DNA of 64,000 nucleotides from assembly GCF_003334405.1 (NCBI RefSeq), contig NZ_QOWM01000003.1; one strand, 5' to 3'. This DNA comes from Escherichia coli. Its GTDB lineage: Bacteria; Pseudomonadota; Gammaproteobacteria; Enterobacterales; Enterobacteriaceae. A program made the position numbers and the translations under genes. The notes below the pieces were generated by a model. It did no database searches, was not told where the DNA came from, and saw only the letters and a program-made list of their open reading frames with translations. Shown in pieces: positions 11,173-62,196 of this stretch (within the stretch, counting starts at the first letter, position 1; every line of letters starts with the position of its first letter).

Positions 11173-11248
<76 letters not shown>

Positions 11249-11302
11249 GTTTAAAAGACATCGGCCTCAAGCGGATGTCTGGCTGAAAGGCCTGAAGAAT
11301 TT

Positions 11303-11376
11303 GGCGCGTTAACAAAGCGGTTATGTAGCGGATTGCAAATCCGTCTAGTCCGGTTCGACTCCGGAACGCGCCTCCA
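11303..11376 (+). tRNA. cysT: tRNA-Cys (anticodon GCA)
   Basis: 74-nt sequence GGCGCGTTAACAAAGCGG...GAACGCGCCTCCA with encoded CCA. Confidence 0.95.
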
Positions 11377-11388
11377 CTTTCTTCCCGA

Positions 11389-11475
11389 GCCCGGATGGTG
11401 GAATCGGTAGACACAAGGGATTTAAAATCCCTCGGCGTTCGCGCTGTGCGGGTTCAAGTCCCGCTCCGGGTACCA
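11389..11475 (+). tRNA. leuZ: tRNA-Leu (anticodon TAA), long variable arm
   Basis: 87-nt sequence GCCCGGATGGTGGAATCGGTAGACAC...CGCTCCGGGTACCA. Confidence 0.95.
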
Positions 11476-29676: not shown

Positions 29677-29702
29677 TTCTCCCGATTTCCTCAATTGAAA
29701 TG

Positions 29703-29732
29703 AACCCGATGATCTGCGCATCGGGTTTTTTA
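29703..29732 (+). terminator. rho-independent terminator after cheW
   Basis: 7-bp stem CCCGATG/CATCGGG followed by TTTTTT. Confidence 0.7.
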
Positions 29733-29762
29733 TTTCAATTTCGCGGCGGGTGGCATCAGCAA

Positions 29763-29789
29763 TAAAGTTTCCCCCCTCCTTGCCGATAA
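29763..29789 (+). promoter_or_regulatory. sigma28 promoter of the tar-tap-cheRBYZ operon
   Basis: Perfect TAAA(29763-29766)-N15-GCCGATAA(29782-29789), about 30 nt upstream of the tar ATG. Confidence 0.7.
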
Positions 29790-43233: not shown

Positions 43234-44069
<836 letters not shown>

Positions 44070-47983: not shown

Positions 47984-48082
47984 CCTGATGCGCTATGCTT
48001 ATCAGGCCTACATAGTCCCTGCAATATATTGAATTAGCAAGGTTTTGTAGGCCGGATAAGGCGTTCACGCCGCATCCGGCAG
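47984..48082. repeat. BIME with two REP elements between torZ and cmoB
   Basis: GCCTGATGCGCTATGCTTATCAGGCCTAC and GTAGGCCGGATAAGGCGTTCACGCCGCATCCGGCAG. Confidence 0.6.
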
Positions 48083-58309: not shown

Positions 58310-59095
58310 TTAGCTGGCCTGCTTTTTCATCATACTGAGAATAAATAACAGTGCCGCACATAGCACCACCGACGGACCCGCCGGCGTATCGTAAACCGCG
58401 GAAAAGGTTAAACCGCCAGTCACTGCCACCATCCCCACCAAAACAGCGACACCAGCCATCTGTTCCGGCGTGCGGGCAAAGCGACGCGCAGTAGCAGCAG
58501 GAATAATCAGCAACGAAGTAATAATCAACGCACCGACAAATTTCATCGCTACACCAATCGTCAATGCCGTCACCAGCATCAACAACAATTTCACTCGCTG
58601 TAATTTCACACCATCAACAAACGCCAGATCCGGGCTTATCGTCATTGACAGCAAATTGCGCCATTGCCAGAACAAAATAGCCACCACGATGACCACGCCA
58701 ATCGCAATAGAGATGAGATCTTCTGGCGTCACTGCCAGCAAATCACCGAACAGGTAAGCCATCAAATCAACACGAATATTAGACATCAGACTCACGACCA
58801 CCAGGCCCAGCGACAGGGCACTGTGCGCCATAATCCCTAATAACGTGTCGATCGCCAGCTGTGGACGCTTCTCCAGCCATACCAGACCGCCCGCCAGCAG
58901 CAGCGTAACGGCAATCACCGCATAGAATGGATTCACGTCCAGCAACAAACCAAACGCGACGCCAAGTAATGAGGCATGAGCCAGCGTATCACCGAAATAA
59001 GACATACGACGCCAGACTACAAACGAACCCAGCGGACCCGCGGCACAGGCGAGCATGATCCCGGCTAACCAACCGGGAAATAATAATTCAATCAT
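58310..59095 (-). CDS. znuB: zinc ABC transporter permease ZnuB (261 aa)
   Basis: Full-length match to ZnuB. Confidence 0.95.
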
Positions 59096-59847
59096 GAGCG
59101 ATCATTTCCCCGACGCAAAACAATTCGTCCCTGTAAATCGTGACGATGGTTATGATGATGGCGATAGATACCCAGTTGTTCAGCACCACGAGGACCAAAC
59201 ATTGAAATAAACTCCGGATGCAGGGAAACAACTTCCGGTGTGCCGGAACAACAAATGTGGTGATTCAGGCACAGCACTTCATCGGTTTTTGCCATCACCA
59301 GATGCAGATCGTGAGAAACCATTAAAACGCCACAATCCAGTTCACGACGCAGTTGGTCAATAAGGTCATATAACGCCACCTGGCCATTTACATCCACGCC
59401 TTGAGTGGGTTCATCCAGCACTAATAATTGCGGGCGATTTAACAATGCTCGCGCTAATAGTACACGCTGCGTTTCGCCACCAGAGAGCTTTTGCATCGGT
59501 GCGTTAATCAGGTGCCCGGCCTGGACACGTTTCAGTGCAGGCAAAATATCTTCTTTATGTGTACCAGGGCGTAAGCGTAAAAAACGGTTTACGGTCAGTG
59601 GCAACGTGGTGTCGAGATACAGCTTCTGCGGTACATAGCCGATGCGCAGTTTTCCGTTGCGCTTGATAACCCCTTCATCGGGTGTTACCAGCCCGAGCAC
59701 TACCCGTACCAGTGTCGACTTACCTGCGCCATTTGGCCCAAGTAAAGTCAAAATTTTTCCAGGTTTAAGTTCCAGCGACACATCAGAGAGGACGCGGCGT
59801 TGGCCAAAAGAAACCGAGACATTTTCCAGGGAAACCAGACTTGTCAT
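59092..59847 (-). CDS. znuC: zinc ABC transporter ATPase ZnuC (251 aa)
   Basis: Walker [10 protein letters not shown]; C-terminal His-rich tail; 4-nt overlap with znuB. Confidence 0.95.
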
Positions 59848-59873
59848 GTTAATTTTAGTCTTGCAGTAGTCAT

Positions 59874-59896
59874 GAAATGTTATAATATCACACTTC
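59874..59896. promoter_or_regulatory. Zur box in the divergent znuCB / znuA promoter region
   Basis: GAAATGTTATAATATCACACTTC, close to the Zur consensus GAAATGTTATAATATAACATTTC, overlapping a TATAAT -10. Confidence 0.65.
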
Positions 59897-59925
59897 TCAT
59901 ATTCATTACGATTATTGGTCGCATT

Positions 59926-60858
59926 ATGTTACATAAAAAAACGCTTCTTTTCGCAGCATTATCCGCCGCTCTCTGGGGAGGTGCAACACAGGCCGCAGAT
60001 GCCGCCGTTGTCGCTTCGCTTAAACCCGTTGGGTTCATCGCTTCTGCCATTGCTGATGGGGTAACAGAAACAGAGGTTTTACTTCCTGACGGCGCTTCAG
60101 AACATGATTATTCACTGCGCCCATCGGATGTAAAACGCTTACAGAACGCGGACTTAGTCGTTTGGGTTGGCCCGGAGATGGAAGCGTTTATGCAAAAACC
60201 GGTAAGCAAATTACCAGGAGCGAAGCAGGTAACGATTGCGCAGCTTGAAGATGTGAAACCGCTACTGATGAAAAGTATTCACGGCGATGATGATGATCAC
60301 GACCACGCGGAAAAAAGTGACGAAGATCACCATCACGGCGATTTCAACATGCATCTTTGGCTTTCCCCAGAGATAGCGCGGGCTACAGCGGTTGCAATCC
60401 ATGGAAAATTAGTGGAACTTATGCCGCAAAGTCGAGCCAAACTTGACGCCAACCTGAAGGATTTTGAGGCACAATTAGCCTCAACCGAAACGCAGGTTGG
60501 TAACGAGCTCGCGCCGCTCAAGGGGAAAGGTTATTTCGTTTTTCACGATGCTTACGGCTATTTCGAAAAACAGTTTGGACTGACACCGCTTGGTCATTTT
60601 ACCGTTAACCCTGAGATTCAACCTGGCGCGCAGCGTTTACATGAAATAAGAACACAGTTGGTTGAGCAAAAAGCAACCTGCGTTTTTGCTGAGCCACAGT
60701 TCAGGCCAGCGGTCGTTGAGAGCGTCGCACGAGGGACATCCGTTCGTATGGGAACGTTGGATCCCCTGGGGACGAATATCAAACTGGGTAAAACAAGCTA
60801 TTCAGAATTCCTGAGTCAATTAGCCAACCAGTATGCGAGCTGCCTGAAAGGAGATTAA
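59926..60858 (+). CDS. znuA: periplasmic zinc-binding protein ZnuA (310 aa)
   Basis: Recognised N-terminus [23 protein letters not shown]; His/Asp-rich loop [25 protein letters not shown]; track ORF N-extended to 59800. Confidence 0.93.
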
Positions 60859-60873
60859 TGAGGAAGTGATTAC

Positions 60874-62196
60874 GTGCAACAGATAGCCCGCTCTGTCGCC
60901 CTGGCGTTTAATAATTTACCGCGACCACACCGCGTTATGTTGGGGTCGCTCACCGTTCTTACTCTGGCCGTCGCTGTCTGGCGGCCTTATGTTTATCACC
61001 GTGATGCCACGCCAATTGTCAAAACCATTGAGCTGGAACAGAACGAAATTCGTTCGCTCTTACCTGAAGCCAGTGAGCCGATTGATCAAGCTGCACAAGA
61101 AGATGAAGCCATTCCCCAGGACGAACTGGATGACAAAATCGCCGGTGAAGCGGGCGTGCATGAATATGTTGTTTCCACTGGCGATACGCTAAGCAGCATT
61201 CTCAATCAGTATGGTATTGATATGGGTGATATCACCCAACTGGCTGCGGCCGACAAAGAATTGCGTAACCTGAAAATCGGTCAACAACTCTCCTGGACAT
61301 TAACCGCGGACGGCGAACTGCAGCGCCTCACCTGGGAAGTGTCTCGTCGTGAAACCCGAACCTATGACCGTACTGCCGCTAACGGTTTTAAAATGACCAG
61401 CGAAATGCAGCAAGGAGAGTGGGTTAACAATCTGCTGAAAGGTACCGTCGGGGGAAGCTTTGTTGCCAGCGCCAGAAACGCCGGTTTAACCAGCGCCGAA
61501 GTGAGCGCAGTGATTAAAGCCATGCAGTGGCAAATGGATTTCCGCAAACTGAAAAAAGGCGATGAATTTGCGGTGTTAATGTCTCGAGAAATGCTTGATG
61601 GTAAACGTGAGCAAAGCCAGCTGCTGGGCGTACGTTTGCGTTCAGAAGGTAAAGATTATTACGCTATCCGCGCTGAAGATGGCAAATTCTACGATCGTAA
61701 CGGTACTGGTCTGGCGAAAGGATTCTTGCGATTCCCGACGGCGAAACAGTTCCGTATCTCGTCTAACTTTAACCCGCGTCGTACTAATCCGGTGACCGGT
61801 CGCGTTGCACCACACAGAGGTGTTGATTTCGCCATGCCGCAGGGTACGCCAGTGCTTTCAGTGGGTGACGGTGAAGTGGTGGTTGCCAAACGCAGTGGCG
61901 CAGCAGGTTATTATGTGGCTATTCGTCATGGTCGCAGCTACACCACGCGTTATATGCACTTGCGCAAGATTCTGGTGAAACCGGGACAGAAGGTGAAACG
62001 TGGCGACCGTATCGCGCTTTCCGGTAATACCGGACGTTCAACCGGGCCGCATCTGCACTATGAAGTATGGATAAACCAGCAGGCCGTAAACCCGCTGACG
62101 GCAAAACTGCCGCGTACCGAAGGGCTGACCGGCTCCGATCGTCGCGAATTCCTGGCGCAGGCCAAAGAGATTGTGCCGCAGCTACGGTTTGATTAA
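60874..62196 (+). CDS. mepM: murein DD-endopeptidase MepM (YebA), 440 aa, GTG start
   Basis: LysM plus M23 peptidase domain with HxxxD and HLH motifs; full-length match. Confidence 0.93.

Follow-up and report, generated by a model that had tools for sequence, protein, structure and literature searches.

The 78-bp spacer between the divergent znuC and znuA genes contains the Zur operator of the znu bidirectional promoter, where two zinc-loaded Zur dimers almost certainly bind across about 31 bp and repress the back-to-back sigma-70 promoters of znuA-mepM and znuCB. (Positions are those of the window, by which we mean the whole 64-kb stretch of DNA that was analyzed.) The identity of this element has been experimentally established for this exact sequence; it is the accepted view and was already known. 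What is new in the present analysis is the mapping of the operator at the level of coordinates and a survey of its conservation across 80 species. The support is split in the same way: Zur binding, its stoichiometry, affinity, and zinc dependence, and the repression of znuC come from published work, and the position, uniqueness, and conservation of the site were computed here.

The spacer, which is the bidirectional promoter region of znuCB and znuA, occupies 59848-59925. The earlier note had given it these limits, and they are exact, both by the ends of the open reading frames and by the RefSeq annotation; a spacer of 78 bp has also been published for E. coli K-12. To the left, the ATG of znuC (59092-59847, minus strand, encoding the ATPase subunit; RefSeq; NCBIfam NF007090, 536 bits) reads from 59847 to 59845 and opens a frame of 251 codons. 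The stop of znuC overlaps by 4 bp with znuB, which encodes the permease subunit (58310-59095, minus strand; NF007089, 533 bits). To the right, the ATG of znuA lies at 59926 on the plus strand and opens a frame of 310 codons for the periplasmic zinc-binding protein (59926-60858; RefSeq; NF007091, 523 bits). (In a mechanical list of open reading frames, this frame begins farther upstream, with a TTG at 59800; the annotated start is 59926.) Downstream of znuA is mepM, also known as yebA (60874-62196, plus strand; RefSeq; NF008652), and a passage of PMC7705223 that cites Graham 2009 states that znuA and mepM are cotranscribed. The NCBIfam equivalog scores of ZnuA, ZnuC, ZnuB, and MepM are all far over the cut-offs. 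Over 601 bases around the site, the window shows 100% identity to E. coli K-12 MG1655, whose annotation of the identical stretch continues from znuB into ruvBA on one side and from mepM into lpxM on the other, and the 601-base stretch was matched in 5,426 of 5,426 complete E. coli genomes. In that genome collection, the znuC-znuA junction also had one match on a plasmid and a second copy in at most two genomes.

Within the spacer, the 23-bp sequence GAAATGTTATAATATCACACTTC (59874-59896) differs from the gamma-proteobacterial Zur box, GAAATGTTATA-N-TATAACATTTC, at just 2 of the 22 specified positions (C59889 and C59893). (The consensus is that of Panina et al., 2003, in the form in which Gilston et al. 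and Li et al. quote it.) No other sequence in the 64-kb window matches this consensus with three or fewer mismatches, and none of 100 dinucleotide-preserving shuffles contained such a site. By analytic calculation, 1.4 × 10−5 matches with at most two mismatches would be expected by chance when the two strands of the 64 kb are taken together. The near-consensus palindrome described in the earlier note is thus real and is the sole such site in the window, and the motif scoring that had been suggested there as a check, carried out against the consensus, came out in its favor. The test against the consensus was decisive. As to symmetry, the box is self-complementary at 9 of 11 arm positions, and 18 of its 23 positions match its own reverse complement. 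(A generic inverted-repeat finder returned short palindromes only and did not report the 23-mer, and the arms were compared by hand instead.) The exact 23-mer string had no match in the text of the literature that we searched. Besides lying between znuC and znuA, the box overlaps the best −10 candidates of both strands, which are described below.

The binding of Zur to this DNA has been studied extensively. Papers that cite Patzer & Hantke 2000 report from it one Zur-binding region in the bidirectional promoter of znuA and znuCB, and DNase footprints, EMSA, and smFRET have been published for Zur on znu operator DNA. In particular, 31 bp of footprint-protected DNA has been crystallized with two Zur dimers (2.5 Å, PDB 4MTD), which sit on opposite faces of the DNA and are joined by Asp49-Arg52 salt bridges (Gilston 2014, PMC4219657). 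The same study reported an apparent Kd of 8.2 × 10−18 M² for Zur on the znu operator and a 6.6-fold repression of znuC by Zur in vivo. A single-molecule study also used the same 31-mer, from the "bidirectional promoter of znuCB/znuA", and zinc switching of Zur has been reported at the femtomolar level. That a single operator can repress both divergent promoters, as the earlier note proposed, agrees with the published footprints, the structure, and the 6.6-fold repression of znuC, and also with Yersinia pestis, where repression was seen in both directions.

The published contacts allow the footprint to be placed on the window. In the numbering of Gilston 2014 (PMC4219657), the dyad lies between bases 15 and 16, the key contacts are A15 and A16', and G19' is a minor contact. 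With the plus strand on top, these contacts fit one register only, in which they correspond to A59885, T59886, and C59889. This single fit puts the 31-mer covered by the pair of dimers, (Zur2)2, at roughly 59871-59901, with the pseudo-dyad between 59885 and 59886. The operator is a dimer-of-dimers site over about 31 bp, and it extends beyond the 23-mer alone. The purine/pyrimidine pattern derived from the structure, RNNNYRNNRYNNYRNNNY (18 bp, made up of two RNNNYxxxRNNNY dimer sites that overlap), matches from 59877; it also matches in three other registers nearby, and by itself it is not discriminating (245 matches in the window versus about 250 expected). We favor the register from 59877 because it fits the published contacts A15, A16', and G19'.

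When zinc is sufficient, two zinc-loaded Zur dimers almost certainly bind cooperatively on opposite faces of about 31 bp (roughly 59871-59901), centered on the 23-bp box at 59874-59896. Within the covered stretch lie the predicted −10 elements of the znuA-mepM promoter, which points right, and of the znuCB promoter, which points left, probably together with their start sites. A single Zur tetramer would in this way sit over the −10 element and the predicted start of each promoter, and RNA polymerase would be excluded in both directions. When zinc falls, Zur sheds its regulatory zinc and departs from the DNA, and both operons are then transcribed. A 2024 paper (PMC11618457) proposed that apo-ZntR speeds the release of Zur via a partial ZntR dyad that overlaps or lies near the Zur box (59858-59901). 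When we compared a ZntR dyad to the spacer, the best match was poor, with 13 mismatches out of 22.

The placement of both promoters inside the operator comes from simple sigma-70 scoring together with the literature. The top plus-strand candidate is TGtTATAAT (59878-59886), an extended −10 for znuA with a predicted start near 59893, and the top minus-strand candidate is TGaTATTAT (59882-59890), an extended −10 for znuCB with a predicted start near 59873-59875. The overlap of the palindrome with a TATAAT, another claim of the earlier note, is plain from these positions: the hexamer at 59881-59886 is inside the box, and a TG at 59878-59879 precedes it. The two −10 hexamers, TATAAT at 59881-59886 and TATTAT running from 59887 to 59882 on the other strand, overlap by 5 bp, and each has a TG upstream. 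A59882 and T59886 are common to both hexamers, with positions 2 and 6 of one paired with positions 6 and 2 of the other. Consistent with this placement, the legend to Fig. 1 of Gilston 2014 (PMC4219657) describes an extended −10 RNA polymerase site within the 31-bp duplex. Also, a 2018 paper (PMC5916954) gives the position of the Zur box as −22 to −3 relative to the start of znuC transcription, which corresponds to a start at about 59873-59874 and agrees with the minus-strand prediction.

The −35 elements are less clear-cut. The candidate for znuA is TTGCAG (59861-59866, plus strand), whose first five bases are invariant or nearly so among 76 distinct spacers. From this candidate to TATAAT there are just 14 bp, as against 16 bp to TAATAT, so the working znuA hexamer may be TAATAT. 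The candidate for znuCB is TCGTAA (59906-59911, minus strand), 18 bp from TATTAT; C59909 is conserved in 99% of the 76 distinct spacers, and G59910 and A59911 are invariant. The TTGCA at 59861-59865 and the CGA at 59909-59911 (TCG on the minus strand) are placed symmetrically, about 20-25 bp on either side of the dyad, and from this arrangement it is plausible that they are −35 elements. A simple −35/−10 and terminator scan of 59700-60050 found neither a promoter nor a terminator. We consider the blank result for promoters uninformative, as the promoters rely on an extended −10 and lack a good −35 at 16-18 bp. Support for the −10 assignment therefore comes from the extended −10 motif and from the literature.

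The genome-wide start-site table that we consulted, from zinc-replete cells (Kim 2012), has no znuA start, and it places znuC starts at 59919 (−) and 60099 (−), with 3 reads each, both outside the Zur box. Weak or missing starts are as expected if the main promoters are repressed in zinc-replete cells. Of these two starts, the one at 59919 (−) adjoins the znuA ATG and the one at 60099 (−) is antisense within znuA. The same table also lists low-count plus-strand starts within znuA, at 60448 (+) and about 60483 (+), which are assigned to yebA/mepM; this suggests Zur-independent internal promoters for mepM. There is no Klebsiella znu entry in the table.

The overlapping hexamers would place znu in the "18-bp" class of bidirectional promoters, with a shared −10 and predicted starts about 18-20 bp apart. 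In this class (Warman et al.; Grainger lab), the −10 elements are on opposite strands and positions 2 and 6 are paired, as they are at znu (A59882/T59886). At znu, by contrast, the starts are predicted ones, and the putative shared −10 coincides exactly with a repressor operator. The 18-bp bidirectional-promoter papers that we searched (including NAR 2026) and their supplementary files do not mention znu. We tentatively suggest, at somewhat under an even chance of being right, that the operator sits exactly on one shared bidirectional −10, that the two orientations of the polymerase compete and so fix the ratio of znuA to znuCB after Zur is released, and that C59889 has a dual purpose. RNA polymerase would then sit in one orientation at a time, and C59889 would be kept both as a Zur contact (G19') and as the source of the TG in the leftward extended −10. 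In the literature searched, we found no report that couples Zur contact and promoter function at C59889 for znu.

The conservation of the site was surveyed with a search anchored on the ZnuA protein, with one genome per species, which gave 80 Enterobacteriaceae loci with 75-99% ZnuA identity. (These include Escherichia, Salmonella, Citrobacter, Enterobacter, Klebsiella, Kluyvera, Cedecea, Buttiauxella, and others.) In 79 of these species the spacer measures 77-79 bp, and at all 80 loci the best match to the Zur box starts 52 nt before the znuA ATG. Within the box, 79 of 80 species share the same 16-bp core, ATGTTATAATATCACA (59877-59892), always at one distance from the znuA ATG, and the remaining species departs from it by one central A-to-T change. 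The core averages 1.99 bits per column versus 1.37 for the remainder of the spacer, and the spacer outside the core has a mean identity to K-12 of 77%. Each arm of the box varies across species in its outer three or four bases, and C59889, which breaks the palindrome, is unchanged in 80 of 80. The Zur box is non-random and is under very strong purifying selection.

Within E. coli, the full 78-bp spacer was present at 90% identity or more in 5425 of 5426 complete genomes (the other one of the 5,426 had no blastn match to it), and the core was intact in every spacer variant that we inspected. The commonest difference from the K-12 spacer is a G for T at 59913, which is outside the box. This position is in the 5' leader of znuA: K-12 has T, all three of the aligned non-K-12 E. 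coli spacers have G, and so do 78% of 76 distinct Enterobacteriaceae spacers. Across the 78 bp, most E. coli genomes have just one difference from K-12. The most divergent of the E. coli spacers inspected, from strain AB_24_S34, has two changes in the outer right arm (C59893G and C59896A) plus T59900C, with the 16-bp core intact. Outside the box, there are also conserved blocks at 59861-59869 and 59901-59925. These comprise the invariant TTGCA, ATTCATTACGAT (in which G59910 and A59911 are invariant and C59909 is nearly so), G59918, and a GCATT just before the znuA ATG; they may be −35 elements or leader signals.

A different arrangement of the promoters has been put forward for the same operator. 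In this arrangement the promoters lie at the outer edges of the box, with ATGAAA (59872-59877) and TCTCAT (59895-59900) as the hexamers of znuA and the mirror, ATGAGA-17-TTTCAT, for znuC, so that Zur would cover the spacer and both hexamers of both promoters and not a shared central −10. Table 1 of Shimada 2014 gives these hexamers for the two genes, and in genomic SELEX the RpoD holoenzyme alone, without other factors, does bind the znu spacer (Shimada 2014). However, the hexamers came from an in-silico consensus search within the SELEX-bound spacer and are not mapped starts. TCTCAT is without the key A2 and scores 0.65 bits, as compared to 8.66 for TATAAT, and it is poorly conserved (39% at 59899, and the majority base at 59900 is C, not T). 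Also, this arrangement implies starts near 59907 for znuA and near 59865 for znuC, and the latter conflicts with the Zur box being at −22 to −3 (PMC5916954), and the figure in Gilston 2014 (PMC4219657) puts the extended −10 inside the operator. We therefore consider promoters at the outer edges unlikely, and the pair ATGAAA-17-TCTCAT with its mirror less likely than two −10 elements that share the center of the box.

The remaining alternatives concern the protein for which the palindrome is kept. It could be no more than the AT-rich, symmetrical core of a promoter, conserved for RNA polymerase and with no dedicated repressor, given that −10 elements are intrinsically symmetrical, that bidirectional promoters are common (Warman et al.), and that the two −10 hexamers fall on the invariant core. 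But the invariance reaches past the hexamers, to the ATG at 59877-59879 and the ACA at 59890-59892, and the entire 23-mer fits the Zur consensus with 2 mismatches. Such a reading is extremely improbable, and it is refuted by the published Zur-DNA structure, by direct binding, and by zur-dependent repression. It is just as hard to believe that the site is an operator of a different regulator of the Fur family, the iron regulator Fur. Fur and Zur boxes are both AT-rich inverted repeats of the 9-1-9 type, but the TATA-type bases at the center have been described as a Zur-specific feature that the Fur box does not have, and the adjoining genes are those of a zinc transporter. Within the spacer, the closest match to the 19-bp Fur box, GATAATGATAATCATTATC, has 6 mismatches out of 19 and lies outside the palindrome, and we rejected a Fur box on this basis.

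As an operator for Zur, the site can be compared to several known systems. It is the very same sequence, with no difference, as the znuA/znuCB Zur operator of E. coli K-12 (Patzer & Hantke 2000; Outten & O'Halloran 2001; Gilston 2014). In Yersinia pestis (Li et al. 2009, PMC2706843), znuCB and znuA are likewise divergent with a short spacer (73 bp), and as in E. coli, one Zur box lies over the −10 elements and the footprints overlap them. In a Y. pestis zur mutant, lacZ fusions were derepressed by 7.8-fold for znuA and 2.6-fold for znuC. A further footprint, "site 2", was seen in Y. pestis where there is no Zur box (PMC2706843), in contrast to the single site described for E. coli in the literature consulted. 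The Zur operators of zinT, ykgM/L31p, and pliG have RNNNY-based recognition and dimer-of-dimers binding in common with znu, but the znu operator is the one that serves two divergent promoters. It also binds Zur 100-300 times more weakly than the operators of zinT and L31p do, and repression at znu is about 7-fold, whereas zinT and L31p are repressed by 560-980-fold.

High-affinity zinc uptake, which helps to determine growth when a host imposes zinc starvation, is under the control of the znu site, and the operator is a reference for structural work on repressors of the Fur family. For a genome scan it serves as a positive control: a textbook operator was recovered, to the exact coordinates, from sequence alone. 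The only new biological question that it raises, and a modest one, is the shared −10 geometry of a bidirectional promoter under a single repressor.

We also note two observations about the wider region. A record labeled as MG1655 (NZ_CP032667.1) has the ruvAB-znu-pykA genes in an order and on a strand opposite to the NC_000913.2 coordinates that Kim 2012 used, and relative to the window it has a net difference of 5 bp between about 11 kb and 59.6 kb. These discrepancies seem to reflect an inversion or an assembly difference in that record and not a feature of the window. Elsewhere in the window, at 43761-44068 on the plus strand, 29696-29773 and 48004-48046 on the minus strand, and 11173-11475 on the plus strand, there are matches above the Rfam gathering scores to the MicL sRNA, the C0465 RNA, and the ES036 sRNA, plus a Gly-Cys-Leu tRNA cluster, all of which is expected for this region of K-12.
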